Shown here: piece after piece, positions 5,887-64,000 of the stretch
Layout: every line of letters starts with the position of its first letter
Numbering within the stretch: position 1 is the stretch's first letter
IMG/VR virus record: IMGVR_UViG_2609460060_000003
Span: 31,136 to 95,135 of that record
Length of the DNA: 64,000 bases
Reading direction: 5' to 3' (one strand)
From: a virus
Taxonomy: Duplodnaviria; Heunggongvirae; Uroviricota; Caudoviricetes
Program-made: the position numbers and the translations under genes
Notes under the pieces: model-generated
Told to the model about the DNA's origin: nothing
What the model saw: only the letters and a program-made list of their open reading frames with translations
The model's database searches: none

Positions 5887-7614
5887 TTACTCAGAGTCAC
5901 CGGCATCAATCGTGTCGCCGCTTATGAAGTTAAGCCCGCCTTTTTTGGCCATTGTCAGCGTTACACGAGTGAAGTAATCAGCGCCGTTGCGTGGGTGCAT
6001 ATCGTTGATAGCCGAACCCCACAGCGTGGTACGGTTGACCAGCGCCGGAGTGGTCGGATGCTGGAACGGGATGGCCGGGACAGCATCACCAGTCACGAAG
6101 CCTGCTTTACCCGGATTTTCATCACGGACGTAGCACAGCACATCCATCGAGCTGAACTGAATGTTCTCTGTCGTTAAGTTCTTACAAATACCAGCAGGTA
6201 CTTCGTACACTTTCACGTTACCGAACAGGGTACCGATGTAGTGAACATACGGAGTCTGGATATAGTCTTCGGCTGGCTGGAAGAAATCCTTCGGCAACTG
6301 TTTGAAGAAAGATGCTGCATCAGCACCAGCAAACATCCCCATCGCACCAGAAGATTTAACGCGCTCAATAATGTCGCGATATACAGTCTGGAATTTGCCA
6401 CGAATGATGGTTGCCCATACATCAAAGGACTGGTTAACCGGCAGAGCGATGTCAAAGGTGTCGGTCGCAAGAGTACGCCAGATCATGATGCGAAGACGCA
6501 GCATATCCTGTTCATGAGACAGGTATTCCTTCAGGGTGCGGAACTGTAGGGAACCCAGGTCCAGACCAAATTCACGCTGTGCTTCATACGCCGCCTGTAC
6601 CGTGTGCTCAGCCGCGATAACGAACTGGCTTGGGAACAGGGTGTATTTCTTCATTTCGTGGTTGATCAGCGGGATCAGCTCAGGAGCGGCTTCAATATTG
6701 ATTTCCGTCTCAATTGCGATCTCAGTGCCTTTATCCGGCGCTTTGGAGAACGACAGGGCAATCTGACCAATGTTGTAGTTCAGAGAGCAGGTAACAGTGA
6801 TTTGCTCACCAGCAGCATTAGTAAACGAGTGAAGTAGGCTGCCGGAACCGTTATCAACAACAGACTTAATACGGTTAACGTAGATATTAGTGCGACCTTT
6901 TCGGATTGGTACATTCTGGCCTTCGAAGTCTTCCATCTTGAAGGTTGCGGTTTTGCTGGTGCCATCGGAGCTTGCCACCAGCACATAGCGGCGGCGTAAC
7001 TGGCTGTACACACCGACGGATTGCATGTCCAGAACATCACCAGCAGCATAAGAACCAAAAGAGGAACCTGCCACGTTAAAGACTTCATAGATGTCGGACT
7101 GGTCACGCGTAACCGGAATGAAGGTACACGCATCAGCGGTAGCTGCCCCCAACTGAACAGGCAGGATCATCGCGAGGAATAAAGGCAGACGCATAACACC
7201 GTCAGAAACGCTCATCATCTCTGCTGCGACGGATTCCAGCATCGCTTTATTAGTGGCATCCATGCTATTGCGGGTGGACTCAATCAGGCAGTTTTCCAGC
7301 GTCTGGTGGCAGGAGGCCAGAATTTCCGGACGCGGCATAGATTTATGTGCTGCGGCGTAGTCAGCCAGTGCACTTGCCCACGCTGTAGCGATTTGAGCGG
7401 TGGCATTATCAGAGATACCCGCAAAAACCGGGTCTTTACGTGCAGCTTCAAGGATAGATGCGGCACGCGCGGCATCATCTTTAATGAATTGGTTATCAGT
7501 ACCGAACTGCGCAGTGCTTGCCCAGCCAAGCACAGCTTTAGAGCGTTTTGCGATATCTGCAATACGATTCTGGTATTCGCGTAAGTTACTCAATTTACTC
7601 TTCCTTAAACACAA
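5887..7614 (-). CDS. major head protein (P1 gene 23 position)
   Basis: 575-aa ORF next to parB, first gene of the operon, preceded by late-promoter-like element. Confidence 0.5.
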   Translation of the reverse strand: MCLRKSKLSNLREYQNRIADIAKRSKAVLGWASTAQFGTDNQFIKDDAARAASILEAARKDPVFAGISDNATAQIATAWASALADYAAAHKSMPRPEILASCHQTLENCLIESTRNSMDATNKAMLESVAAEMMSVSDGVMRLPLFLAMILPVQLGAATADACTFIPVTRDQSDIYEVFNVAGSSFGSYAAGDVLDMQSVGVYSQLRRRYVLVASSDGTSKTATFKMEDFEGQNVPIRKGRTNIYVNRIKSVVDNGSGSLLHSFTNAAGEQITVTCSLNYNIGQIALSFSKAPDKGTEIAIETEINIEAAPELIPLINHEMKKYTLFPSQFVIAAEHTVQAAYEAQREFGLDLGSLQFRTLKEYLSHEQDMLRLRIMIWRTLATDTFDIALPVNQSFDVWATIIRGKFQTVYRDIIERVKSSGAMGMFAGADAASFFKQLPKDFFQPAEDYIQTPYVHYIGTLFGNVKVYEVPAGICKNLTTENIQFSSMDVLCYVRDENPGKAGFVTGDAVPAIPFQHPTTPALVNRTTLWGSAINDMHPRNGADYFTRVTLTMAKKGGLNFISGDTIDAGDSE

Positions 7615-7644
7615 GGCACTTGTGTGAATCCCTTTTCGGAAGAG

Positions 7645-7673
7645 ATTTTATTGAAAGTCACTTGTTGACTTTC
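7645..7673 (-). promoter_or_regulatory. late-promoter-like element upstream of major head gene
   Basis: Inverted repeat GAAAGTCA-N5-TGACTTTC; on the coding strand AACAAGTGACT + 5 nt + TAAAAT; same motif and spacing at 28487-28511 and 63021-63043. Confidence 0.4.
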
Positions 7674-10033: not shown

Positions 10034-10173
10034 CGAAAGTCATCCTTTATGCTGTATTTTTGAATTTAATTAAAAATGCTGCATAAAATAATAATGTATG
10101 CGTAGATGCTTGTACATAGCATTCTCTGCATGTTTGGTTCATTTTGCACGATAGAGAGTTGCAAGGAGGGCAC

Positions 10174-10194
10174 AAAAAAGCCCCGTTCAGGGGC
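10174..10194 (-). terminator. rho-independent terminator after the T5orf172-like gene
   Basis: Minus-strand GCCCC-TGAAC-GGGGC followed by TTTTTT, immediately 3' of the ORF ending at 10202. Confidence 0.6.
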
Positions 10195-10201
10195 ATCAGT
10201 G

Positions 10202-11011
10202 TTATTTGTTAAGAGCTGCGAATAATCGTTCGAAATCGATAGTATCTATAGCACGCGTAAGCGCCGGAAGTTCAGCCTCAAAGCACCCGTTTCGATCGTA
10301 AAAGAAGGGACCGAAGAGCGAGGCATGTTGGATTCTACTTCGCCCCAGTCCGGACACACAGTTAAGCCCATTACCGGCTAAAAGGCTAAAAAACTTCTCT
10401 GGATTATCGTGGTAAAGCTGGGAATCAATGGTGGCGGTTAACTCTTCCATAGGGAAGCACACCCGCCCTGTCTCCCAGGGATATTTAGTCCGAAGCGTAA
10501 ACATCGCTTTCAGCAATTCACATTGAGCGCGGATCGCGTCAGGTTCATAGCCAGATATGGAGACATAAGCCACATCCCTCATTCCTGCGTCATCTTTGAA
10601 AGTCACGATAGAAGTAACATCCAGTTCTTTTTCGAAAGAGCGAGCAGCATCTACTGGACGCTGAAGTAAATCATTCGACTTAATCCGCTCGAGAATCCCT
10701 CCCCACATATCATTTAGATATTCGATATGAGCCAAAACCTTATCAAGACACTCTCGTGTAAACCATTCAGTATGCCCGCCACCGGCGCTTTTCTCCCACG
10801 GCGCATTCCAGGGGAAAAAGGTTGCGTGTAAAGCCCGCTCAAGATTAACTATTGCCAAACGCGTACCACGATAGACCCGTGAAAGCGCAAAATCGGGATT
10901 CACTTGTAGCCCTTTAAACCGTGCCAATGGACCACATGAAATGCCGATTTTAAAAGTATCTCCGTTCTCCGGCACCAGAACGTAGAGGTAGTGTTGTTTC
11001 TCTTCTTGCAT
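10202..11011 (-). CDS. T5orf172/GIY-YIG-like domain protein with unassigned C-terminal domain
   Basis: 269 aa; YLYVLVPENGDTFKIGIS...LERALHATF...GGHTEWF fits the T5orf172 pattern (YxY-KIG-LH-EWF); own terminator; lies between incA and the parA promoter. Confidence 0.6.
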   Translation of the reverse strand: MQEEKQHYLYVLVPENGDTFKIGISCGPLARFKGLQVNPDFALSRVYRGTRLAIVNLERALHATFFPWNAPWEKSAGGGHTEWFTRECLDKVLAHIEYLNDMWGGILERIKSNDLLQRPVDAARSFEKELDVTSIVTFKDDAGMRDVAYVSISGYEPDAIRAQCELLKAMFTLRTKYPWETGRVCFPMEELTATIDSQLYHDNPEKFFSLLAGNGLNCVSGLGRSRIQHASLFGPFFYDRNGCFEAELPALTRAIDTIDFERLFAALNK

Positions 11012-11045
11012 ATCAATACCACTGCTTGATGAGAACCGCGCAAAT

Positions 11046-11302
11046 GTTGACTATGCGCGAAAGTTAATGTGAATAGTTGACTATGCGCGATGTGACTACA
11101 GTCAAAAGTTGACTGTAGTCGATTTAACTCCACCAAAAATCGACTATGTAAGATATTGTCGGGAGAAACGTTGACTATACGCGATGAAATGACCCTAAAA
11201 GCCATCTCAATAGCAGCTTGCAGAATATTGACGCCAGCAAAAATCCACCAGCGTCAACGAATGTCGCCTATAGTCAACTTCTCGCTATCGCATATAGTCA
11301 AT
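11046..11302. repeat. incA-type iteron array
   Basis: About 8 copies of a ~14-bp repeat (TTGACTATGCGCGA and variants) in both orientations, including a perfect palindrome GACTACAGTCAA-aag-TTGACTGTAGTC at 11093-11119. Confidence 0.7.
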
Positions 11303-11303
11303 A

Positions 11304-12224
11304 TTATGGATTGCGCTTATGGATCTGGAAGCCGATTTTCCTGCCGTTTTTTATCTCTGAAAATTTAAGATATTCAATAGCTTCCAAATCTTTCATGGCT
11401 TTTCTGATAACGCTATTTTGCACGCTAACGGATGATTTGAGATTAAGCCTCGCTCTAAGGCGCTCAATGCTGACAGGTGCCGGGTTGGCGGGTAGAGCCT
11501 CAAAGAATGTATACAGTACCTTGGCCGTCTCTTTGCGCCCTAGTTTATCCAGCATCTTCAGCTTCAGGATTCGCTTATAGTCAACATAGTAAAGTTCAGA
11601 TAGCTGTTTCTGCGGCTGGATCTCGATAACATCAAGCTCGGTATTCAGGCTGCTATATGCCAACAAGTTGACGTTAATGTTATTGAGATGACCTTTTGCC
11701 GCCGGGAAGCGGAATTTGACAACTGTCTGCTGAATGCGTGTCAGAGAGTCATCAATACTTTTACGGAACGCCTTTGAAAGGCGCTTACGTGGATAGCCGC
11801 ATCGATCGGCAAACTCGGAGAATGGCAGGGTGATTATGCCGTCATCATCAGGTGCGTAGTCAAACAACGCGGAGGTTATGCCCACCCACACCTTAAAATC
11901 AGTATCCATATCCAGGCGTGGACCATGAATTTCAATTCCCTCATAGCCTTCCTGCTCAACAATTTTGAGGCTTGATAGTTCTTCAGTTGCGTTCGTTGTG
12001 TTTGTTGTAACTGACGATCCGCGACGTAGCGCCACATTGGTAGATTTTAAGGTTGGCACAAACACACCTAAGCGCAACAAAGCGATGGGTTGTATAGTGC
12101 TGTTGTTATTGGGCTTCAGGCTGTGGATTTCTCCTGTATTTCCTGCAACTTCTTCAACGCTAAGGAAGCCTTTACTTTCTTCCGGCATCACGGTTTCTCC
12201 ATGTGTGGCGCGGCCTGACGTCAA
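11304..12224 (-). CDS. repA: RepA plasmid replication initiator
   Basis: Contains GPRLDMDTDFK and other segments recalled from P1 RepA; flanked by iteron arrays; true start may be the Met 12 codons in (12188). Confidence 0.8.
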   Translation of the reverse strand: MTSGRATHGETVMPEESKGFLSVEEVAGNTGEIHSLKPNNNSTIQPIALLRLGVFVPTLKSTNVALRRGSSVTTNTTNATEELSSLKIVEQEGYEGIEIHGPRLDMDTDFKVWVGITSALFDYAPDDDGIITLPFSEFADRCGYPRKRLSKAFRKSIDDSLTRIQQTVVKFRFPAAKGHLNNINVNLLAYSSLNTELDVIEIQPQKQLSELYYVDYKRILKLKMLDKLGRKETAKVLYTFFEALPANPAPVSIERLRARLNLKSSVSVQNSVIRKAMKDLEAIEYLKFSEIKNGRKIGFQIHKRNP

Positions 12225-12271
12225 TTTGGATGGCTGTTATCAACAGCTGTGAATATTCAGACTCTAAAATC

Positions 12272-12370
12272 GCTTACAGTCAATGTTTCTGTCGCGTATA
12301 GTCAACAATAAATCGCGTGCAGTCAACAATAAATCGTGCACAGTCAACATAAAATCGCGTATAGTCAATG
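12272..12370. repeat. incC-type iterons within oriR
   Basis: Direct repeats CGCGTATAGTCAAC / CGCGTGCAGTCAAC / CGTGCACAGTCAAC / CGCGTATAGTCAAT spaced at 22 bp. Confidence 0.75.
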
Positions 12371-12371
12371 T

Positions 12372-12480
12372 TGATCCCATTTCAGGCCAGTAATGACGCG
12401 GCTTACAGCGATCCGGGATCTTCTTTGGATCTTCCTAGGTTCTCTTTAGGATCTGTTTATTGGATCTATGCTGTGGATAA
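12372..12480. other. oriR GATC-rich segment with DnaA box
   Basis: Six GATC sites within ~95 bp, DnaA box TGTGGATAA at 12472-12480; a second near-consensus box TTATCAACA at 12237-12245 beside the repA start. Confidence 0.7.
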
Positions 12481-13260: not shown

Positions 13261-13543
13261 TTTTCACTTCCTGGCTGTGAAAATGTTGCTCTGCTTTGTT
13301 CATCGTCTCAATGGTCTGGTTAAGATCCATTATTGACTTATCACGTTCCTTAACAGCCTGATCAAGACTGCCAATTTTCTCCATGGCTTGCTTTAGCTGA
13401 TGACGTTCCCATGCAAACCCAGCACCAACAAGTGCGCAAATCAGAACAAGAACACCAGTAGCAGCAAGTTTCTCCTTCAAAGACAAAGCTGTTTTTAACG
13501 TAGAAAAGAATGACATGTCTTCCTCCTGAAGAAAAATTATCAA
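13094..13543 (-). CDS. i-spanin-like membrane protein
   Basis: N-terminal TM segment ATGVLVLICALVGAGFAW then coiled-coil-like periplasmic region; overlaps the lipoprotein gene (Rz/Rz1-type arrangement); likely start at 13516. Confidence 0.45.
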   Translation of the reverse strand: MIIFLQEEDMSFFSTLKTALSLKEKLAATGVLVLICALVGAGFAWERHQLKQAMEKIGSLDQAVKERDKSIMDLNQTIETMNKAEQHFHSQEVKNESEQAKYADRQMERKAEVQKQLVAAGNVRQRIPADTQRLLRESISEFNADADKG

Positions 13544-13555
13544 TGAAGTCCTTTG

Positions 13556-14401
13556 TTACTGTGCCGCTTTGTTTAATTCATCAAGAACAGAATCAGGAAC
13601 CAAAGCGGCGACTGCGCTGGATGTGCTGGTCTTATTTGCTGATGCTTCCGCAAGCGCGGTACCGATAGCATGGTTATAAGCAGTTATGGCTACGTTGGCG
13701 CTTTCCTTCGCTCGTTCATACTGCTGTTGTAACGCAGTTGTGGGCGCTGTTGTCTGGTTGAAAACAACCCCAAACTGTTCAGTTGCTACTTTCAGAGATT
13801 CAATTTGCTCTTCTGTTAGTGCTGGTGGGGGAGTGGCAGTGCCGCCGCCTGAACCAGAGCCTGACGAGCTTCCTGAGCCAGTGTTAAGGGTCTGGTTAAT
13901 CTCCCCCATAGCAGCGACTAAACTTGATGTATTAAGCGCGTTAACAGCGTCCTCAAGCGATTTAGTAATATTCACATCACCAATGGCAATAGAGATCGGC
14001 AGTTCTGAAACTTCTCGCTCATTAGCACGGCAGTAAACATCCCAACCAATATCGAGTTGAAGCAGCATTGACAGATCTGCATAACCAGCCAACAGGTCCG
14101 CGTGCTTAGTTGCCAGTTCTCCAATGTTCGTTAAGCCGGTTGTGGTTGTTCTGATCGTTGAAACATAGCTGGTAATAGTGTCGGGATAGACAATTGTATC
14201 CAGAATTAATCCGGTCAATTCTTCTGCAAGCAGTTTTGCTGTGTTAGCACTGTTTCGTGCCGATGTTATGGCACCAGGTGTTTTCATCCCACCGGCGGCG
14301 GCCAATTTTTTATATGCGGATAACTGGTAGTCTTTTTCCAGCATGATATCTCCTAACTTACCTGAACCAGGCCGTCTCCGGCTGCAACGGTAGAGCCGCA
14401 T
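13556..14401 (-). CDS. hypothetical protein with Gly/Ser-rich linker
   Basis: 281-aa ORF; GSGSSSGSGSGGG linker; start may be internal. Confidence 0.4.
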   Translation of the reverse strand: MRLYRCSRRRPGSGKLGDIMLEKDYQLSAYKKLAAAGGMKTPGAITSARNSANTAKLLAEELTGLILDTIVYPDTITSYVSTIRTTTTGLTNIGELATKHADLLAGYADLSMLLQLDIGWDVYCRANEREVSELPISIAIGDVNITKSLEDAVNALNTSSLVAAMGEINQTLNTGSGSSSGSGSGGGTATPPPALTEEQIESLKVATEQFGVVFNQTTAPTTALQQQYERAKESANVAITAYNHAIGTALAEASANKTSTSSAVAALVPDSVLDELNKAAQ

Positions 14402-15989: not shown

Positions 15990-18574
15990 AAGAGCTGTGC
16001 TATGGATCTGTTTGCAGTGGAATTGAAGCCGCGAGTATTGCCTGGGAACCGTTGGGTATGCGTCCGGCGTGGTTTGCTGAAATCGAGCCTTTTCCATCTG
16101 CCGTTCTTGCGCACCGCTGGCCCCATGTCGCCAACCTTGGCGACATGACAAAACTTGCCAAAAAAGTCCTGGCTGGGGAAATCGAATCCCCTGATGTGCT
16201 CGTCGGGGGAACACCTTGTCAGGCATTCAGTATCGCTGGATTACGTGGTGGGCTTGATGATGAGCGTGGCGCGCTAACTTTAAAGTATGTGGAGCTTGCA
16301 AATGCAATTGACGACAAACGGGCTGAGTCATTTCTCAAACCAGCCGTTATCGTCTGGGAAAATGTCCCAGGAGTCTTGTCATCGGCAGATAACGCCTTCG
16401 GATGTTTCCTTGCCGGATTGGCTGGAGAAGATGCGCCATTTGAACCAGGTGATCGACCTGAATCAGGAAAAAGTAACGCGTTCTGGCGGTGGGATGGCAA
16501 AACCGGTTGCCATGCTCCAAAGTGGCCGCAGTGTGGTTGTATTTATGGACCGCAGCGAAAGGTGGCCTGGAGAATCCTTGATGCCCAATACTTCGGAGTG
16601 GCACAACGACGCCGACGCGTGTTTGTTGTCGCAAGTGCTCGAACAGACCTCGATCCCGCAACGGTACTTTTTGAGTTCGAAGGCGTGCGCCGGGATATTG
16701 CGCCGAGCAGAGGCGAGGGGAAGGAAGTTGCCGGAAATGTTGGAAATGGCATTAAAAGCGGGAGCCATTGGGATAACCCTGTAAATCCGCACCCGACACT
16801 TAACCAGTCACACAATACTGGCGGGATCGGCGCAAGTAACCAGGAGATTTTTGCGCAGCGCGGAAGTGGGCTTGTTGGTGCTTATCGAATGGTTGCATTT
16901 GGCGAATATGCTGATGATGAGACTGCTTCTACTGTCAAGGCCAGAGATTTTAAAGATGCAACCGATTTAGCAGTTTTCAGTAGTACTGGTGCTGGTATTT
17001 GGCGTGAAGGTGCAGGCACTCTTCGTGCCAGATCACAAGAAAGTCACGAACATCTGGCAGTGATGGCTATTCATGGAACACAAGATCCTGATGTTAATTG
17101 TGAATTGGCACATACTATTGGTCGTAACCATGGTCAAGAAAATGCAGTCGTAGCTTTTTCCTGCAAAGATTATGGACAAGATGTTTCTATTGAATGTTCT
17201 CCGACTTTACGATCTGGTAATGCTGTTAATAGCAATCCAAATGCAGGATGCCCACCAGCTGTTGCGTATTCGCTACAACATGCACAAATTGGGCGAAAAG
17301 ATGATGCTGGACCGCAGGGTAAAGGGTGGCAAAAAGAGATAAGTTTTACTCTTGATTCCCGCGCTACAGCTGACGCCGTTGCGTTATCTTTTGGGGGGCA
17401 GAAAAGTATTGAAAAAGGCAATTTAGGTGAGAATGGTTACTTACCTCATATGATGAGTGTTCGCCGTCTTACCCCTGTTGAATGTGAAAGGCTGCAAGGT
17501 TTTCCTGATGGGCATACGTTGATCCCTACGGAAAAGCGTAAAAAAGTTTCTTCAGATGAACTGGCATACCTTCGCAATAACTATCCTGATTTAAGTGAAG
17601 AAGAGGCCGCGATGCTTGCAGCTGACGGACCGCGTTACAAAGCGATCGGCAATAGTATGGCGATACCAGTAATGCGCTGGATTGGCGATCGGATTGCCAA
17701 GGCTGCATGTCGGCAGAAGGAAGGGAGTGAAACAAAAGAGCGAAAAGTTAAACCAGCGGCAGAATTCGAACGGTCCATATTCAAATGGGCTGGTGGAAAA
17801 TTTGGTGTTCTGGAACAAATCTTTCGCTATTTGCCAGAAGGGAAGCGCCTGATTGAACCTTTCGTTGGTGGCGGAGCTGTCTTCATGAATGCCGGATACC
17901 AGGAAAATCTGCTAAATGATGTGAATGCTGACCTGATTAACTTTTACAAGACTTTGCAACGTGAGGAACGTTCACTTATCACTCTGGCGCATCGGTTTTT
18001 CCAGGACTACAACACACAGGAAGGATACCTGGCAGTACGGAGTGCGTTTAACAAACAAGTCTATGATGATTTACATCGCGCAGCGGCGTTTTTGTTCCTG
18101 AACCGACATTGTTTTAACGGATTGACGCGTTACAACCAGGCCGGTGAGTTCAATGTCGGTTATGGGAAGTATAAAACTCCGTATTTCCCATTACAGGAGA
18201 TGGAAGCCTTCCTCGGTGCGGAAGGGCGGTCTGAGTTTGTATGCGGTGATTTTGCAGCGGTGATTGAAGCTGCCGGAGAAGGTGATGTCATCTTTTGCGA
18301 TCCGCCGTATGAACCGCTTCCAAATACAGAGGGATTCACGAACTATTCCGGTCATGACTTTAAGTTTGAAGAGCAAAAACGCCTGGTGTCTCTGTTGACG
18401 GATGCTCATCGTCGAGGTGCAAAGGTTCTCATTACTAACAGTGGCGCGCCAAACATCAGAGAGCTTTATCATGACAGTGGCTTCAGAGTGGAACATCTTT
18501 TTGCCAGACGTTCTGTGTCTTGTAAGGGGGACACTCGAGGTGTAGCTCATGACGTTTTGGGTATATTGCTCTAA
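15986..18574 (+). CDS. dmt: bifunctional DNA methyltransferase (N-terminal C5-cytosine, C-terminal Dam-like N6-adenine)
   Basis: 862 aa; [12 protein letters not shown] (PCQ) and ENVPG motifs at N-terminus; FVGGGAVF and FCDPPYEP (DPPY) motifs at C-terminus. Confidence 0.8.
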
Positions 18575-31455: not shown

Positions 31456-32153
31456 AGATTGCTTTAGTTTTTCGCTCTGGTGGTGACTATAACGCTTCCG
31501 ATGTGCAGTGGCTGGTTAATCAACTGCCAAAAGACTATGAAATTATTTGCCTGACAGACCTGAAGTGTTTACATGTACCTGGCGTCAAAGTTATCCCATT
31601 GATCAACCAGTGGCAAAAGTGCCGTGGCTGGTGGGCGAAAATCGAGTTGTTCCGACCGGATATAACCGATGATCTGTTCTATCTGGATTTGGACACGGTT
31701 ATTGCCGGTGATATACGCCCAATCCTAGAGCATCCACCAACCAGCTTCACCATGCTTAGGGATTTTTACCATCCACAATATCGTGGCAGCGGTGCCCTGT
31801 GGATACCAAATAGTGTTAAAGCGCATATCTGGAGTTCATTCTGGCAAGATCCGGAAGGTTGGATTTCTCGTTGTGTCACTACTGAGTGCTGGGGTGACCA
31901 GGGGTTCTTACGAAAGGTTATGGGCGATGATACACCAGCATTTCAGGATCTGTATCCAGGATGGTTTGTAAGTTACAAGGCCGATGTTGTGGAACCTGGT
32001 TCAAAATATGCGAGCGCGCGTTACTCCAGGGGGAATGGGGCATTACCAAAAGACTGCCGAATAATCTTTTTCCACGGCAAACCGCGACCTCGCGAAGTGT
32101 CAGAGGATTGGCTTCCCCTTATCAGCTCATTTTTTGAGCGAGAATCAGAATAA
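31452..32153 (+). CDS. putative glycosyltransferase-like protein (DxD-type)
   Basis: 233 aa; YLDLDTVI resembles a DxD motif; translationally coupled to the phosphatase gene. Confidence 0.35.
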
Positions 32154-32220: not shown

Positions 32221-32454
32221 CTACAAGGTGCACTATGTGGCCATTCCGACGGAAATATCACTACTGGCTGATCGCCTTTGTTACGCCGACCGGCGGTATC
32301 AGGCATGTCATCACCAGGTATCGCAACAAGAGACTCACCTTAGCCAGAATTTTACAGGCTGCCATAGGTGAGGGACTGGATACAAATTGCGTAGTCCTTC
32401 CTCCTTCATACTTAGGAAAAATGACCGAAGCACAAGCTAATACGGAACTTTGAA

Positions 32455-38113: not shown

Positions 38114-38656
38114 ATGATCACTATTACCAAAGAGCGACTGCTGACAATCAAGCAGTGGCGCGAAACATACGGACCTGGTAGCAACGTTGTACTGCCAGCA
38201 GAAGAAGCGGAAGAACTGGCACGAATTGCACTGGCATCGCTGGAAGCAGAGCCTGTAAGCCAAACTTACAACTTGCCAGAATTAATCGAAGGCATGGAAG
38301 TTTCCATTGATGTAAGCACTTGTGATGCTGATTTAGGTAATCGCTATTTCGGCACCGTCACCGAGGCGTTAGAACTTGATACTGCCAAGAATGGTTACAT
38401 CCTCCTGGTTCAGGACGCAGAGCCAAACTTCGATGTAAATGGCAACTCTCCGGTAACTCCGGATAGTTGGATAAGCTGTAGTGAGCGAATGCCCGCTCAA
38501 GATGATTGGATTTTAATTTATTCAAAGCACGGCGAGTATATGGCAGGCCAGGTGCAAGGGGAATACGTGGAGTTGAGCGACGGCACTTTATCGTGGTTAG
38601 GGAACGCCTTGTTCTGGATGCCGCTACCAGAACCGCCGCAGGAGGTGAATCAATGA
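38114..38656 (+). CDS. prophage-type protein (DUF551-like C-terminus)
   Basis: 180-aa ORF; C-terminal W/P-rich segment. Confidence 0.35.
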   Translation: MITITKERLLTIKQWRETYGPGSNVVLPAEEAEELARIALASLEAEPVSQTYNLPELIEGMEVSIDVSTCDADLGNRYFGTVTEALELDTAKNGYILLVQDAEPNFDVNGNSPVTPDSWISCSERMPAQDDWILIYSKHGEYMAGQVQGEYVELSDGTLSWLGNALFWMPLPEPPQEVNQ

Positions 38657-41013: not shown

Positions 41014-41380
41014 CATTTGACGAAATCGATCACCCTATCCTGAACTTCAGAAAGAAGGTCTTTTTCACGCGCCAGGACGTCAGGATATTGACGTTCTGGC
41101 CTTACCAGATGCCGGAGCTTCCCATTAAGCAGAATGGCCTCAGAAAACACTTTTACGCTGTGCTTTATCCCCTCTGTTTCACTTTTCAGCGTCAAAATAA
41201 AGCGCAATTGCTTATTAGCCTGATTCGGATTCAATACACGAATTTGCAGTTCGTCTATGCTGTTCCGCAATGGGATTGATGCCACCACACTGGTGCAGTC
41301 TCTGATTGTCTGAATTGAACGGCTAACATTGAGAACGTTATTGTGCATGTGCCTGATCCACTAACTCCTGGAGGTTTCTT

Positions 41381-41632
41381 GTGTCAGATCGAAATATAGC
41401 AGCTAAAAGCCAGGAAGAGCGAGACAAGGTGAACGTAGACCTTGCCGCCAGCGGCGTTGCTTACAAAGAACGGCTGAATATACCTGTGATTGCAGAGCAG
41501 GTGGCCCGTGAGCAACCGGAAAACCTGCGCGCCTATTTCATGGAACGGCTACGGCACTACCGGCAGTTAAGCCTCCAGTTGCCAAAAGGGAGCGATCCGG
41601 TGTATCAGAACGAGGATGCACCAAAAAAATAA
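41381..41632 (+). CDS. hot: DNA polymerase III theta-subunit homolog
   Basis: 83 aa; [43 protein letters not shown] closely parallels recalled E. coli HolE. Confidence 0.8.
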
Positions 41633-43030: not shown

Positions 43031-44074
43031 GTGAAAGCCGTAATTACTCCCTTTGTACAGAAAGAGCTTGGCCTCGCCACGTTCAAAGTGGATCAGGAGG
43101 TCAGAAAGCTGGTGGAGGCTGGCCGTAAATTTATTATGGAGCCGGTGCCGCGTGAGTTAATTGAGCACATGGAAGACGGCCTCGTTGTTACCGAGCAAAC
43201 CATGGCAACAAATGAGGCGTTGCAGCCGTTTTTTAACAGCGATGAACTGTTTCGCCGTATTGGTGGAATTGACGCGCTGGTGGCGTGGTTGCGTAGGAAA
43301 GAGGGTCAATGCCAGGCCGCAGATCGTAGTTGGTGTGACAACCATATTGTCCACGCTGAACGAGACAATAGCGCGGTGTTGTTGTGCTGGCATCACGATA
43401 ACCATTACCGGATGCGTGGTTTTAATGAGCTGAAAGAAACGCTGCACAATAATCGCGTTAACTGGATACTGGATGTCGCCCGTCAGGAAATGGGCCTTTC
43501 AAATAGCCATGATTTAAGTATTCAGGAGCTGTGCTGGTGGGCTTTCATGCGCAACATGATGCACCTGATGCCGGAAGAAGTCTGCCGCATATCAATAAAT
43601 AAGATGAAGGCTACTCCGCAGGATAGCGGACCTCTGAAAGAGGCGGATATTCGCCCGTATGACGATCGCGCTACAGCATATGTTCAGATGATGGAAGAAC
43701 GCGCCGCGCCGATGCGTGCAAAAGTATGCCCTGTGGATGTTGACTCCGACCCAGGTATGGCGCATTTCAAAATACCAAAACTTCAATCGCTAAAATTGCC
43801 CGAGTACGTGGACTTTGTGGCTTCCCGTCCATGCTGTGGCTGTGGAGCTGCGGGAGCTGGCGCTCACATTACGCCTTATATCGTTCGTCATAGTCGATTA
43901 TGCGCGCATGACATTTATGCTATTCCTCTGTGCCAGTCATGCCAGCGTGATATTGAGCGTGACCGCGATAATTGGGAGAAGACGCACGGTAGGCTGGCGA
44001 TGCATCAACGATTGTTCTTTGATTACGCGCTTGGAGTCGGCGCTATCACAAGTCACTCGTCGAGCGTTAGATAA
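43031..44074 (+). CDS. post-doc hypothetical protein with Cys/His clusters
   Basis: 347 aa; CWHHDNH and [12 protein letters not shown]...CQSC segments. Confidence 0.45.
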
Positions 44075-44162: not shown

Positions 44163-44615
44163 ATGTTACTTAACTGGCAGGGACGCCACTTCATGGAAAT
44201 AAATCACTCACGAATAACATCGTACGAGATTGCGGATTACATGATCCGCACTAAATCTCTTCTATCAGCGAAAGAACTCGCAGCAATTCTTGAAAAGGAA
44301 TACCCGCATCTGGATGTCGATAAGCGCGATGTTTATCTGCGCTTAAAGGCTATCGCTGTGTCTAAGTATTCGTCTGTTTTGATTGATGACAGTACACGCC
44401 CACGTAGATTTCAGATCCACTCTCTGAATCCTGAATTCTTTCGCCGCAGCCGCGCTCCGCGCCGGTTTGATGAAAAACTCCAGAACGAACTCTATATGAC
44501 GCAGGACGAAAAGGAACGCCGGGAGCACCAGCCTTGGGTGATGGCGCGTCAACTTTTCAATAAGGTGGTCCGTCAGCACCGTCATTACGGTAATGCCACA
44601 TCCGCACGTATCTGA
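44163..44615 (+). CDS. lpa: late promoter activator-like protein
   Basis: 150-aa ORF between C1 operator and pacA, the position of P1 lpa. Confidence 0.5.
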   Translation: MLLNWQGRHFMEINHSRITSYEIADYMIRTKSLLSAKELAAILEKEYPHLDVDKRDVYLRLKAIAVSKYSSVLIDDSTRPRRFQIHSLNPEFFRRSRAPRRFDEKLQNELYMTQDEKERREHQPWVMARQLFNKVVRQHRHYGNATSARI

Positions 44616-44701
44616 TTGATTGCTTGCCCGTTCCGGGCCTTTTGACATGTGACTTTCGTTACCCTCGCGTCAAAAAGAGTTTTATACGAAAGGAAGCATA
44701 A

Positions 44702-45895
44702 GTGACCTGGGACGATCACAAGAAGAATTTTGCTCGCCTGGCGCGAGATGGTGGTTACACCATCGCACAATATGCCGCCGAGTTTAATCTCAACCCAAAC
44801 ACCGCACGTCGTTATCTCCGTGCATTCAAAGAAGACACCGGAACAGCGGACAGCCGTAAGCCAAATAAGCCTGTCAGAAAACCACTAAAAAGCATGATCA
44901 TTGATCACGCTAATGATCAACGTGCAGGTGATCACATTGTGGCTGAAATGGCTGAAAAACAAAGAGTTAATGCTGTTGTCAGTGCCGCAGTCGAGAACGC
45001 GAAGCGCCAGAATAAGCGCATAAATGATCGTTCTGATGATCATGACGTGATCACCCGCGCCCACCGGACCTTACGTGATCGCCTGGAACGCGACACCCTG
45101 GATGATGATGGTGAACGCTTTGAATTCGAAGCTGGCGATTACCTGATAGATAACGTTGAAGCGCGGAAGGCCGCGCGCGCTATGTTGCGTCGGTCCGGGG
45201 CTGATGTTCTGGAAACCACTCTTCTGGAAAAGTCTCTCTCTCATCTCCTTATGCTGGAGAACGCCAGGGATACGTGTATTCGCTTGGTTCAGGAAATGCG
45301 CGATCAGCAAAAAGACGATGATGAAGGAACTCCGCCTGAATACCGTATCGCGAGCATGCTAAACAGCTGTTCCGCGCAGATAAGCAGCCTGATCAACACC
45401 ATTTACAGCATCCGGAATAACTATCGAAAAGAAAGCCGGGAGGCGGAAAAGCACGCTTTGTCTATGGGGCAAGCTGGCATTGTTAAGCTGGCATACGAAC
45501 GAAAGCGTGAAAACAACTGGTCAGTGCTGGAGGCAGCTGAATTCATCGAGGCGCATGGAGGGAAAGTACCGCCCCTGATGCTGGAGCAAATCAAAGCCGA
45601 TCTGCGTGCTCCTAAGACCAATACCGATGATGAGGAAAGGCAAACAGCCGTCGGTGGCCCTTCTCTTGAAGATCTGGACAAAGTTGCGCGAGAACGGGCC
45701 GCCAACCGCCGCGCCGATGCCGCATTGTGGATTGAGCAGCGTAGGGAAGAAATCGCCGATATCGTTGATACAGGCGGTTATGGAGATGTTGATACTGAAG
45801 GTGTATCAAACGACCCATGGCTGGAACAAGACCTGGACGAAGACGAGGAGGAAGACGAAGAAGTTACCCGCAAGCTATACGGGGATGATGATTAA
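44702..45895 (+). CDS. pacA: PacA terminase subunit
   Basis: 397 aa (GTG start after AAGGAAG); contains the pac hexamer clusters; acidic C-terminus. Confidence 0.8.
44895..45053. other. pac: pac packaging site
   Basis: Four TGATCA at 44895-44934 and three TGATC(A/G) at 45025-45053 flanking a ~90-bp segment, inside pacA. Confidence 0.8.
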
Positions 45896-53293: not shown

Positions 53294-53443
53294 TAAATAT
53301 ATTATTTTTAATCTGAAATAATTGACAACTGACAAGTGACTTCAGTCAGAATCATCACACGCCCGGTACGGATGGATCCCTTTTCAAATATTCCATGGAC
53401 GGCACAGTCTGAGTACCGGGCGCTACCTTCAGTTGTATTGCTA

Positions 53444-53470
53444 AGCCGCCGCTGGTGGCTTTTCTTTTTT
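53444..53470 (+). terminator. hairpin with T-tract upstream of mat
   Basis: AGCCGCC-gct-GGTGGCT then TTTCTTTTTT. Confidence 0.4.
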
Positions 53471-53480
53471 GTGGGGCGCT

Positions 53481-54122
53481 ATGGATAAGAAAATATGCGT
53501 TGTTTCAATGAGCGTCGGCAAACCGGCGTCAATGACTGCTGCATGGATCAACAATGAGCTGATAATGGCTGAGCGGACCAGCTACCCTGAACGCCGCCGC
53601 GACATGGAACTCCAGCTGCTGCGCGAATTGCGAGAAAAAGAGGAAAAGGGTTTTATCGTGCTGGTGGAAGAGGAAAACAGCTTTATTACTGGTCGAGTTG
53701 GCCAGCGTGTAAGGTTGCGAGATCCCTTTATGAACGGCAGGCCGGTACTGATTGAAGCAATGCAGATTTACAAGGAATTGGAACGCCAGAAAGCGATCAA
53801 GTTACCGCGCAAAGAATCCGGCAAATACATCCTCCACCAAAGCATCTTCGATTCCGAACACGACAAAAAAGGCGATGAATTTTTCAACATCAACTGGAGC
53901 GAAATAACGACAGAGCATGTTCTGACGTTACTATGTTGCTTTGCGACGGAATACAACAACGTTGCCAGCGCAGACTACATCAGGGCAATGGCTGGAGAAG
54001 TTGAGGCACGCCAGGAACCATCGTTACTAAGCCCTCTGATTAACATAATTCGCGGAACCCAAACGCTGGCACAAAAACAGGTGCCTAAGGGAGTATTAAC
54101 AGGAAAAGGAAATTATCTATAA
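53481..54122 (+). CDS. Mat-like protein (P1 mat position)
   Basis: 213 aa from ATG 53481; backbone-like GC; between ref and the variable slot. Confidence 0.45.
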   Translation: MDKKICVVSMSVGKPASMTAAWINNELIMAERTSYPERRRDMELQLLRELREKEEKGFIVLVEEENSFITGRVGQRVRLRDPFMNGRPVLIEAMQIYKELERQKAIKLPRKESGKYILHQSIFDSEHDKKGDEFFNINWSEITTEHVLTLLCCFATEYNNVASADYIRAMAGEVEARQEPSLLSPLINIIRGTQTLAQKQVPKGVLTGKGNYL

Positions 54123-54178
54123 ACGTCAATGCATTAGGGTATACTTCTCCGTAGAACTATAAGTAAATGGAGTAAGTA

Positions 54179-55483
54179 ATGAGCGAGTATATAGAAATTG
54201 CCTATGCAGCAGCTACACATAGGCTGTGCTTTCTTACAGGCACTGGATTTTCAAAGGCTGTTTCTGATGATAAAGCCCCAAGTTGGCAATCTTTATTGGA
54301 GCAACTGTGCGGTTTATTGAAGGATGGTGACTCACTCAAAGAGGAATTATTTCCTGATGGAAAAGCAAAAGACCTTAGCCTTGAAGAGGCTGCTCAGGTT
54401 ATTGCACTAAAATTTATACTTTCGGGGAAAAATATTTACCAGGAGATTGAGAAAATCATAGCCTCAATCGAACTTGATCCATCAATTGAATATATTCAAG
54501 ACTTTTTCAAAGAAAACACATTTAAAGTAATTACGACAAATTATGACAAGTTAGCAGAAAAACTGGCTGGAGAGAATCGAACGTGTACAATCACCCCCGG
54601 CCTGCCAATTCCAAAATATAATTGTGAGGTTAAAGTCTACCATGTTCACGGCTCTATAGACTCCCCATCAGATATGGTTGTTACTAGCGAGGATTATTTC
54701 AGATTTATAAATGGTAATTCTTACTTTTCAAATAAACTAAGCACAGTTCTACATGAAAACACTATTGTTATTCTTGGCTATTCTCTAAGTGACGCGAACC
54801 TCAAGGCGATTATAAATGAATATAAGGTATTTTCACGGGACAACGTAATGTCCTCCAATATTTTCCTTATTTCCCGAGGAAAACTATTGCAACCTATTAA
54901 AGATTACTATTTTTCCTGCTTTGGGATTAGGGTTATAGATAAAACAGAGGTGTCTGATTTCTTTAGAAAACTTAACAAGAAAATTCCAGAAGCAAAAAAA
55001 ATAAAAGACAAATTGAGGCACTCAATCAAATCGGTAATAAAAAACGGAAGAGAGTATAAAATAGAGTTCTTGAAGTTAGAGGATTCTTTTTATCATATCA
55101 TTTCCTCCATTTCATCATCTGGATATAGCTGGAATGATGAAAAGGTATTAAATGTTTTTTGTGATATAATAGATAAAAAAATAGATCTTACTAAAGAGTC
55201 TGGCGCATGGGAGCAGTATGAACACTTGGCAAAATGGCTTATTTATTTCGGTAGTTTATTTGAAGTAAAAGGAACCAACTTTGAGAAAAAATACATACAT
55301 GCGGTTGAACACTCAATGACTTATATGAATAAACCTTACGAAACAGGCTACTCATGGCGAGCATATCTAGCCTGGAAAACAAAATGGCCTTCACTGACAG
55401 CATCTAACCGCTCTCTTATTAAGAGTAAGATGGAAGAAATCCCGCTACAACAGATTCACGATATTATATCTAAGTTTATATAG
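54179..55483 (+). CDS. SIR2-family (SIR2_2-like) protein with uncharacterised C-terminal domain
   Basis: 434 aa; GGAG 8 nt upstream of ATG; ordered motifs CFLTGTGFS (17-25), VITTNYD (N121), VYHVHGS (H157), IVILGYSLSD (196-205); AT-rich relative to flanks. Confidence 0.7.
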   Translation: MSEYIEIAYAAATHRLCFLTGTGFSKAVSDDKAPSWQSLLEQLCGLLKDGDSLKEELFPDGKAKDLSLEEAAQVIALKFILSGKNIYQEIEKIIASIELDPSIEYIQDFFKENTFKVITTNYDKLAEKLAGENRTCTITPGLPIPKYNCEVKVYHVHGSIDSPSDMVVTSEDYFRFINGNSYFSNKLSTVLHENTIVILGYSLSDANLKAIINEYKVFSRDNVMSSNIFLISRGKLLQPIKDYYFSCFGIRVIDKTEVSDFFRKLNKKIPEAKKIKDKLRHSIKSVIKNGREYKIEFLKLEDSFYHIISSISSSGYSWNDEKVLNVFCDIIDKKIDLTKESGAWEQYEHLAKWLIYFGSLFEVKGTNFEKKYIHAVEHSMTYMNKPYETGYSWRAYLAWKTKWPSLTASNRSLIKSKMEEIPLQQIHDIISKFI

Positions 55484-55491
55484 TATATTTA

Positions 55492-55520
55492 TCTCCGGCC
55501 TAATCTCCCTAGGCCGGAGA
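55492..55520. other. inverted repeat between convergent SIR2-like gene and lxc
   Basis: TCTCCGGCC-N11-GGCCGGAGA, 9-bp stem, no clear U-tract. Confidence 0.4.
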
Positions 55521-55524
55521 GTTC

Positions 55525-55773
55525 TTAATCAGCATTCAGGAGCAATGCGTTATCTATGATGATCTGCTCCCATTCCTCGAATGCCCGGTCGCGGACGCCC
55601 TGGGGAACGCTGTTAGTTTTGAAATCGACGACCGTCCGCCATTTTCCGTCCGGACGGTACATGCGCAGAGCTTTACTTCCCCCTTCCCTGCGCACCTCAA
55701 CGTTATGCTTGTCAGCAAACTCTTGTAATGCTCGTAGCGTCCCATGCTTTACTGTGTAGTATCGCTTTTTCAA
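55525..55773 (-). CDS. lxc: Lxc/Bof-like C1 co-repressor
   Basis: 82-aa ORF at the end of the darB operon. Confidence 0.5.
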   Translation of the reverse strand: MKKRYYTVKHGTLRALQEFADKHNVEVRREGGSKALRMYRPDGKWRTVVDFKTNSVPQGVRDRAFEEWEQIIIDNALLLNAD

Positions 55774-56243: not shown

Positions 56244-59200
56244 TTATGCGTATTGTTGGATGACGGCCAGAACGTCCGCCACGTTGTGTTTTGTCTCGAT
56301 AATCCACCAGTTACCCGGGAAATCGCTGTTCTTCGCCTTCGCTGGCAGCCAGCGAGCGCCGAATTTCGCCTTGATTGCGTCTTTCGCACGGAAAAGAACG
56401 CCTTTCATGCCTGAGGCTTCCTGAAGCCCAAATACCTCGCCAGCGGCGAATTTTGGTGCGTACATCATCTTCAGGTCGGCGGTGGATACGCGATAATTCA
56501 GACCAAGAGACTGAGCTATGCTGGTGGCATCACCCTGTATTGATGATAACTCTTCTTGTTTCTCGTTTCTGGCGGCAATCTCTTCCTCCGTGATGTTGCC
56601 AAGGGCTAGGTTTATCCGATCAGCGTCGGCCTGTTTCTCTTCATCGGTGCGCCCGGCAAGAACCGTGTTAATTCTCTGCAATATCTCCACATGATTCTTG
56701 CGCATGCTGAGCAATTCCGGCGTAACCTCGTTAAGATCCACCAGCCCAAGGATGGCAAGGTCGGAAAACATTGATACCAGGTTGTAGGTCATGCGATAGC
56801 TGAGTTGACCATAGGCTGATGGCAACTTCACCGCATCCATTTGATAGGCATCCATAAATTTAGAGCCGTCGTTTACGACATCCGCTATTGCAGGTGTGAT
56901 TTTCCCTGTGGTGGCGGCCTCCCTGATTGCTGTTACCCACGATTGAGTCAGCGCGGCGACTGCATGATTCAGATTGGCTTCCCGTTCTGCTGCGATGCGC
57001 GCGCTTGCTGCGTCCATTGCCTGCTTGATCTCGGCTTTATTGCTGTAAATGCCAATGGTGCCAAACTGTGCTGTGGTGATCTCATAATCTGACGCCCGGA
57101 ACTCATTGGTACCGAAAATGGCATTGGTGACTTCAAGTTCAGAATCCCCGTTACGAGTAGCCCCCTGGCTTGTTTTTTCCGGCATTCTGGCGATCGCATC
57201 CGCTATTTTCTCCTGAATTGCTTCAGGGGATAGCGTATCTCCGTATGACGCGATTACATCGCCATAATTGGAGCCAAACAGTTCAACCAGGAATGTTTCT
57301 GCCGAACGGATCTGGCGGTTATTCCCTTCCGACATCATACCAAGCACCCATTTTGCAATTGACGACTTCAGCGCGCCGTCACGGCGATCCGGGTAAACCG
57401 CATGCTTCAGTGGGTCCGTATAGGTACCAACAAAATCGATGCTATAGCCTGACTCTGTAGTCTGAACGCCGTATGAGTCAGTGATTTTGATCATGCCGCG
57501 CTGCTGGAAACGGTAGAAATCGTCACAGGAAATGATGTCGTTAATCCCGGCGATGGAGACGCCACCACTGATTTTCTGCATAACAGCATCTTCATCGGGA
57601 GTTACATCAACCTGTTTATCCAGCGTCTTCACATCCCAGTTACCCGATTTGGTGCCTTTGAAGGTAAAGATGATCTCCACGTCTGCGCGCTGGCTGTCGA
57701 AGTCCAGCGACTTAATGCGAACGATATCACCGGCACAATCATAGTATTGGCCTACACGCCATGAGCGATCGCCGATAACAAGGAACTCATTCGCATGGTT
57801 AACCAGATCAGGATCAACATCCAGAATGCCTTTATTTATTGCATCCTCCACCAGCGGGCGCAGGCGTTTGATATCCGTCGCGGCCTTCTGAGTACGGTTC
57901 AATAATTTCTCATAGCGGGAGATGGCCTGAGAGATATTAGCCTTGCGCTGAATGGCGCTTTTCAACGACGCGCGATACTGTGCTAACAACATACGGTCTG
58001 TGTGATGGACGCTACCCCAGCGGGCTTTCCAGTCTGCGTTATCAGCTGCTTTGGCCATTACCGCCTGTTTGAATTTAGCTACCTCGGCGGTGGTCTTTTC
58101 AAGTTCCGCTTTGCTTCGCTCCAATTCAGCGGTAAGTACCTCCACATCCTCACCAGCTGCGTGCTGCGCCTTGATGTAGTTCTTAAGGTCGATAGTAGCC
58201 TGTTCTTTCTGGCGAGCGCGTTTCGCAGCTTTCGCCTTATCCATTTGAACCTGCATCATTGCCAGACGTTCGCCGTCATCCTTCGCGGTATACATCTGCA
58301 TTTCGATCATGTCATTGGCGTCGGCGTTCTCCATTTCTGACTTATCTGAACGGAGGATATCGGAGATCCAGCCTGCTTTACGCTTCAGCGTCTTCAGTCG
58401 GTATTCATCGAAAGACCCCTTGCCGCAGTAGTAGTGAACGCGAACGCTTGCACGGTTGGAGCCAACTCGTGCACCGCGACCGTTACGTTGTGCGATGCTG
58501 GCTGGTGTCCATGGCAACGTCAGATGATGGATGTCAGTCGTTCCTCGATGCAGGTTGATACCCACCTCTGCCTTTTTGTTGCAGATGATGATCGGAGTCC
58601 GGCCCTCCTGGAAGTCGGCTGCAATCTTTTCCAGACCGCCCAACGACATTTCATTTTGCTGCGCGATATAGGCGTCATACAGAGCCATTTGCTCGTTGTA
58701 TTTCGCTATCTGTGCATCTGTTGGTTCATCCGGTAGCTCTTTCGGCGGTTTAACCGCTTTCAGTTTCTTACCGGTTTTACCTGCCTCGGCAACCGTCTGA
58801 GCATTCAGGATCCCCACCTTTGAAGGTTCAAGGTTTAGAGCATTGCAGATAATGCGCTTGAGCTTCTGGTGCTGCGTTTTTTCATCGGTGAAGATGATTT
58901 GCTTACCTTCCGGGAAAAACTCCTTCAGCGTGGCGATCAGCTTCGCGTATTTCGGCGTAACGGGGTGAGTTACGGTCTGTTCGTCAATGCCAAACCTGGC
59001 CAGGCGCTTATTCACTTCCTGCTCGAACGCTTCCGGAACCTGCAACTGAATAAACTCGCCCTTATCTATCAGGGAGTATTGCGATTGCTGCGTGATTGAA
59101 TCATCACTGTCGTCGTCTTCGCTGGTGGCTTGTTTAGGCAAACTGTCCGCCAGCTGCTGCACCGCATCGGCGTACTCCGGCAGGAAACGATAGGTGATCC

Positions 59201-63020: not shown

Positions 63021-63043
63021 TTAACAAGTGACTAGTGTTAAAT
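63021..63043 (+). promoter_or_regulatory. late-promoter-like element upstream of the head gene at window end
   Basis: AACAAGTGACT + 5 nt + TAAATT, ~45 bp before the TTG start at 63087. Confidence 0.35.
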
Positions 63044-63077
63044 TCCGTTCAAACACGATGCGAATTATTCTAATTAA

Positions 63078-64000
<923 letters not shown>

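Follow-up and report, generated by a model that had tools for sequence, protein, structure and literature searches.

Expression of the late genes of phage P1 requires the phage protein Lpa (PMC8198154, PMC8201110). According to PMC1891329, which cites Hansen et al. 2003, Lpa binds DNA sequence-specifically and is thought to activate transcription via the RNA-polymerase-associated host protein SspA, and SspA itself is stated not to bind late-promoter DNA; the dependence of transcription starts downstream of the -10 on both Lpa and host SspA goes back to literature cited in PMC10695390 and PMC1891329. The P1 record AF234172 lists eleven late promoters (LPmat, LPpro, LPlyz, LPdar, LPs, LPsit, LP23, LP26, LPpmgL, LPhot and LPpac), each with a '-10' and a 9-bp '-22 region' as sub-features, and places lpa behind a C1-controlled sigma-70 promoter, which would make the late operons the last step of a cascade running from C1 inactivation through Lpa. 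These promoters have been annotated in GenBank since 2004 and the element is thus already known; we take the published late-promoter consensus from the GenBank features together with secondary citations.

The DNA that we analysed, a stretch of 64 kb referred to in the following as the window, is colinear with P1 in a whole-window megablast (P1 50048 -> 94800 -> 1 -> 18225, i.e. circularly permuted across lox), with an identity of 96–99% in the shared segments and a few blocks replaced. Between positions 7000 and 9000 the identity is 99.3% to phage P1 (AF234172 / NC_005856) and 99.6–99.8% to other P1-like phages, and the capsid-promoter region matches 782 plasmid records, many of them at 100%. 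The colinearity and identity to P1 and the plasmid matches therefore mark the source element, judged by its sequence, as a P1-like plasmid prophage. Two blocks (10132-12394 and 54116-55525) are without a megablast match to P1; they correspond to the incA/repA region and to the place that res-mod (with IS5) occupies in P1, and thus point to replicon control by a different segment and to far shorter DNA in place of the EcoPI restriction-modification genes. The 5' part of mat (53372-53490, plus strand) carries a 2-bp deletion relative to P1 (TTTTTTGT--GGGGCG) that shifts the frame of the P1-annotated mat start, and the long mat ORF in the window starts at 53469 (TTG) or with an ATG at about 53483; the deletion suggests a shorter true Mat or else a frameshifted gene.

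The initial annotation had described a shared element at the heads of three late operons, each copy oriented with its gene and none accompanied by a -35-like hexamer. Indeed, the pattern AACAARTGACT-N5-TARAWT occurs exactly three times in the window, compared with 0.00 matches in 100 dinucleotide-preserving shuffles, and the three copies point towards the genes for the capsid protein (gene 23), the baseplate (gene 26) and the portal protein (prt), respectively. The sites are where they had been placed, except that the end positions of the second and third were off by 1–3 nt. The corrected matches, with the promoter parts and first genes assigned to them, are as follows:

7645-7666, minus strand: motif match 1, AACAAGTGACTTTCAATAAAAT
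7645-7650, minus strand: -10 hexamer TAAAAT of LP23 (P1 58825-58830, 'minus_10_signal LP23')
7655-7663, minus strand: -22 box AAGTGACTT of LP23, a 9-bp palindrome (AAGT-G-ACTT) and proposed Lpa site (P1 58835-58843)
5887-7593, minus strand: gene 23, major capsid protein, first gene of the LP23 operon (ORF; P1 gp23, 57067-58773)
28487-28508, minus strand: motif match 2, AACAAATGACTAGCGGTAGAAT
28487-28505, minus strand: LP26, with the -10 TAGAAT at 28487-28492 and the -22 box AAATGACTA at 28497-28505 (P1 LP26, 78485-78503)
28080-28457, minus strand: gene 26, baseplate, first gene of the 26-25-7-24-6-5 operon (ORF; P1 annotation)
63023-63044, plus strand: motif match 3, AACAAGTGACTAGTGTTAAATT
63026-63044, plus strand: LPpro, with the -22 box AAGTGACTA at 63026-63034 and the -10 TAAATT at 63039-63044 (P1 LPpro, 17251-17269)
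63087-64000, plus strand: prt, portal protein, TTG start, running off the window end (translation; P1 prt start 17312)

All three -10 hexamers fit TANNNT, and the three -22 boxes, each 4 nt upstream of its -10, coincide in coordinates with '-22 region' features of AF234172. A search for a -35 hexamer 16–18 bp upstream of the -10 of LP23, LP26 and LPpro gave at most 2 of 6 matches to TTGACA. When 43-nt stretches around all eleven P1 late promoters were aligned with the window sites, the first site proved to be P1 LP23 and the third P1 LPpro, base for base over the 43 nt, while the second is P1 LP26 in the core motif, with a few bases of the upstream flank differing. The proposal that these are P1 late promoters carrying an element upstream of the -10 is thus borne out by comparison with the annotated P1 sequences, and lpa itself is present in the window. 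The element that had been delineated is also the same one, although its canonical form is a 9-bp imperfect palindrome (AAGTnACTT) 4 nt from the -10 and the earlier motif begins 3 nt further upstream. Taken together, we consider the three sites, with a probability of roughly 93%, to be LP23, LP26 and LPpro, Lpa-dependent late promoters carried by a P1-like plasmid prophage. Since AF234172 flags LP23 as 'predicted' (LP26 and LPpro carry no such flag) and our literature search found no transcription-start-site map of P1, we infer function at the window copy from identity, context and conservation.

A weight matrix built from ten normally spaced P1 late promoters describes the shape of the element more closely. 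The A and the C just upstream of the box hold 1.1 and 1.3 bits, equal to positions within the box, and LP26, LPsit and LPpro, though poor palindromes, retain ACAAnTGACT. What is conserved thus seems to be an asymmetric element of about 12 bp, with RAC preceding the 9-bp box (RAC-AAGTGACTT). The matrix places nine annotated P1 sites at 22–28.6 bits, compared with a shuffle maximum of 17.8, and leave-one-out scores of genuine late promoters range from 13.8 to 25.2. As a marker, the bare palindrome AAGTNACTT was discarded for being unspecific (4 matches versus 0.97 expected, one shuffle also giving 4), and its matches at 689 and 3310 have no -10 and matrix scores below 9. A match with two mismatches at 32325 (score 10.7) and matrix matches at 44040, 38108, 39219 and 1179 are inside the shuffle range, and we took them as chance occurrences.

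With a looser pattern and the weight matrix, extra copies were found at 44644-44665 (plus strand), 53331-53352 (plus strand) and 26782-26803 (minus strand). The earlier motif scan, correct for its three sites, had missed the further annotated copies LPpac, LPmat and LPpmgL, which we list here with the activator gene and the neighbouring C1 operator:

44163-44615, plus strand: lpa, late promoter activator gene (Pfam PF25716 BPP1_LPA, 'Late promoter-activating protein', E 2.3e-57)
44647-44665, plus strand: LPpac, with the box ATGTGACTT and the -10 TACCCT, after lpa and before pacA (44702-45895) (P1 90475-90493)
53334-53352, plus strand: LPmat, with the box AAGTGACTT and the -10 CAGAAT (P1 LPmat, 2678-2696)
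28497-28515, plus strand: LPpmgL, divergent, sharing its -22 box with LP26, with ATAATT at the -10 position (P1 annotation, 78495-78513)
28531-28547, minus strand: C1 repressor operator O26 (Op82), AATTGCACTAATAATTT, adjoining LP26/LPpmgL (mapped from P1 78528-78544)

LPpac and LPmat of the window do not differ from their P1 counterparts, and the Lpa encoded in the window is 99.3% identical to that of P1 and 100% identical to that of SJ46. The divergent LPpmgL differs from its P1 counterpart in the -10 region (28506-28515, plus strand; GTTGATAATT in the window versus GTTGAATATT in P1) and fits the family matrix very poorly (leave-one-out score -5.4), so its standing as a late promoter looks weak. 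LPhot is absent from the window, although hot is present (41381-41632, plus strand): the stretch upstream of it (41260-41380) shows no relationship to P1 86.4-86.55 kb, and hardly any P1 match exists in the flanking region from about 35.2 to 41.7 kb of the window.

Searching for Lpa-related loci returned only near-identical relatives (99–100%), which are useless for footprinting, whereas a tblastn search of the phage collection with Lpa led to two divergent relatives, Cronobacter phage JK004 and phage D6, with Lpa identities of 67% and 31%, respectively. Across JK004, the pattern ACAAGTGACTT-N4-TANNNT with at most two mismatches has 9 matches versus about 0.3 expected, all of them in short gaps between genes and immediately in front of a gene; among the genes that follow are those orthologous to 23, 26, prt, pacA, R and lyz. 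The matrix trained on P1 gives six matches above 20 bits in the same phage, compared with a shuffle maximum of 16.5. LPpac is conserved in JK004, and aligning the LP23, LP26 and LPpro regions pairwise shows the motif to be a conserved island amid diverged intergenic DNA. An alignment of the gene 23 promoter from five lineages (the window, JK004 and the Salmonella plasmids CP053320, CP146848 and CP077703) shows GTCAACAAGTGACTTnCAATAAnAT to be invariant, the DNA upstream of it not being alignable.

The P1 motif has no match within the 46 kb of D6 that we examined. Instead, D6 has a box of its own, AAATMACAWACTGA, which lies 1 nt from a -10-like hexamer at the head of its prt, R and lydA operons; a further copy, the fourth, deviates at two positions and lies in front of a lysis gene. 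The pattern AAATMACAWACTGA-N-YANNNT is found in D6 (MF356679) at the following positions:

19215-19235, plus strand: upstream of orf16 (lysis)
25221-25241, minus strand: upstream of prt
31511-31531, minus strand: upstream of lydA
38115-38135, minus strand: upstream of R

An Lpa with 31% identity, the absence of the P1 motif from the 46 kb examined and the presence of a separate box fit a co-evolution of activator and box.

If the three sites are Lpa-dependent late promoters, they would be unusable by host sigma-70 RNA polymerase alone. Lpa (gp10) would be produced from its C1-repressed early promoter and would bind the -22 box; with SspA as RNA-polymerase-associated host co-activator, it would then turn on, late during lytic growth, the operons for heads, tails, lysis and packaging. 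One could argue that no dedicated activator is needed and that the sites are no more than common constitutive sigma-70 promoters or fortuitous matches, as their -10 hexamers are good ones for sigma-70 (4–5 of 6 matches to TATAAT) and overlapping sigma-70 promoters are also predicted at LP23, upstream of gene 23, in the P1 record. However, chance would produce no copy of the motif where three are seen, there is no -35 at 16–18 bp from the -10, and it is the part of the motif outside the -10 that forms the most conserved block in the diverged intergenic DNA of five lineages. The motif is moreover restricted to late-operon heads in P1 and JK004 and missing from the examined 46 kb of D6, whose Lpa has diverged, which together leaves this explanation very improbable. 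That the motif is a repressor operator, e.g. for C1, rather than an activator site might be suggested by the C1 operator O26 only 26 bp from the LP26 box; we give this the least credence of all, since the C1 operators of P1 are a different 17-bp sequence (of which O26 is the window copy) annotated apart from the -22 boxes, and neither LP23 nor LPpro has a C1 operator nearby.

A further explanation concerns LP23 only. The 29 nt from 7645 to 7673 read ATTTTATTGAAAGTCACTTGTTGACTTTC on the plus strand and GAAAGTCAACAAGTGACTTTCAATAAAAT on the minus strand, and the initial annotation had pointed out that the motif is part of a perfect inverted repeat there:

7653-7673: inverted repeat GAAAGTCA-N5-TGACTTTC, overlapping the -22 box of LP23; the upstream arm in the direction of transcription is 7666-7673

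The repeat is real and perfect (8+8 bp with a 5-nt loop), it is predicted to fold in RNA reading through from upstream, and parB-parS lies just upstream of it; it might thus be a separate functional element superposed on LP23, e.g. a hairpin at which par-operon transcripts end or the binding site of a dimeric protein, and be what matters at this position. However, of the five lineages only the window and CP077703 retain the upstream arm; JK004, CP053320 and CP146848 have lost it, with the promoter block invariant throughout. The upstream arm therefore does not belong to the conserved promoter, and we reject the 8-bp repeat as functional core; nor is it the canonical promoter element. No U-run follows it, making it unlike an intrinsic terminator, and LP26 and LPpro have no such repeat. 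We regard a separate role of the repeat as unlikely, if less so than the two preceding explanations, and retain the assignment of all three sites to Lpa-dependent late promoters.

Beyond the annotated set, two matches in the window resemble late promoters:

26782-26804, minus strand: candidate late-promoter-like match CAACAAGTGACTGGTGATAACCT inside gene 7 (26121-26849, minus strand), matrix score 21.5
13536-13558, minus strand: candidate weak late-promoter-like match TAACAAAGGACTTCATTGATAAT between upfB and ppfA, just upstream of ppfA, score 14.0

Among the unannotated sites of P1 and the window, the match inside gene 7 alone exceeds all shuffles (21.5–21.6 versus 17.5–17.8), and its score falls among those of genuine late promoters in the leave-one-out test. 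P1 76780-76802 is identical to it and carries no feature, and the JK004 counterpart has decayed to ACAAATGACCGGTGATACGCT, with a score below 12; the match may serve genes 24-6-5 as an internal late promoter, or may have arisen by chance within the coding sequence. The score of the match upstream of ppfA is within the chance range. P1 (14.5) and JK004 (15.8; TGACAAATGACCTGGCGGAAAAT) each have a match at the corresponding position; the alignment keeps the motif positions and not the spacer, both copies have a GAWAAT -10, and the site may represent an unannotated weak late promoter for ppfA/mlp.

In the leader of gene 23 (7598-7644, minus strand), the heptamer CTCTTCC (7638-7644), which separates the -10 of LP23 from the expected start, is complementary to GGAAGAG (7598-7604), the Shine-Dalgarno sequence of gene 23, and an inner hairpin lies at 7609-7625. 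In folding predictions, RNA containing CTCTTCC sequesters the Shine-Dalgarno sequence, and RNA from the expected late start leaves it largely open; leaders of the JK004 type keep 6 of 7 aligned pairs, with three double changes. According to these folding models, the pairing may silence translation of read-through par-operon transcripts. The folds of the leader RNA have weak z-scores (-1.4 and -0.4), and the anti-Shine-Dalgarno idea is therefore only a lead.

Indeed, the gene 7 match, the ppfA match and the leader pairing are all leads, not findings, and we consider it rather doubtful that with these three additions the P1 late regulon is slightly larger and more layered than annotated. If it were, the gene 7 promoter could boost genes 24-6-5, the lysis-related ppfA/mlp could fall under the control of Lpa, and par-operon read-through would be translationally silent, with capsid protein made only from Lpa-initiated transcripts.

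What we report is thus the correct annotation of textbook regulatory elements in a model phage, and little beyond. Recognizing them helps in the annotation of the numerous P1-like phage-plasmids found in Enterobacteriaceae, of which the 782 matching plasmid records are an indication; records of P1-like plasmids usually label these genes 'hypothetical' and hold no promoter features.

Compared with P1, where LP23, LP26 and LPpro serve the same genes from the same relative position with the same -22 box, 4-nt spacing and -10 and likewise lack a -35, the window differs in the upstream flank of LP26, which is at the same time the -10 region of the divergent LPpmgL (ATAATT in the window, AATATT in P1), and in having no LPhot, because the DNA upstream of hot has been replaced. 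JK004 and the Salmonella P1-like plasmids CP053320, CP146848 and CP077703 carry the same motif at the heads of orthologous operons, differing from the window in single-base variants of the box (e.g. GTGACC, GCGACT) and in diverged flanks and leaders, and the late promoters are unannotated in their records. D6 follows the same logic in that a short conserved box directly precedes a -10-like hexamer at late-operon heads, but the box is another one and is 1 nt rather than 4 nt from the hexamer. The yield of the comparison is thus that the element persists at 67% Lpa identity and is replaced by another box at 31%. Activator-dependent phage promoters without a -35 are also known from the MotA-box middle promoters of T4, the C/Mor system of Mu, Ogr/Delta of P2/P4 and staphylococcal RinA, in all of which a phage DNA-binding activator compensates for the missing -35 on sigma-70 RNA polymerase. 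The activators of these systems are unrelated proteins whose unrelated boxes are located elsewhere (at about -30 for MotA and about -55 for Ogr), and P1 is unusual among them in having its box at -22 and in its need for the host protein SspA.
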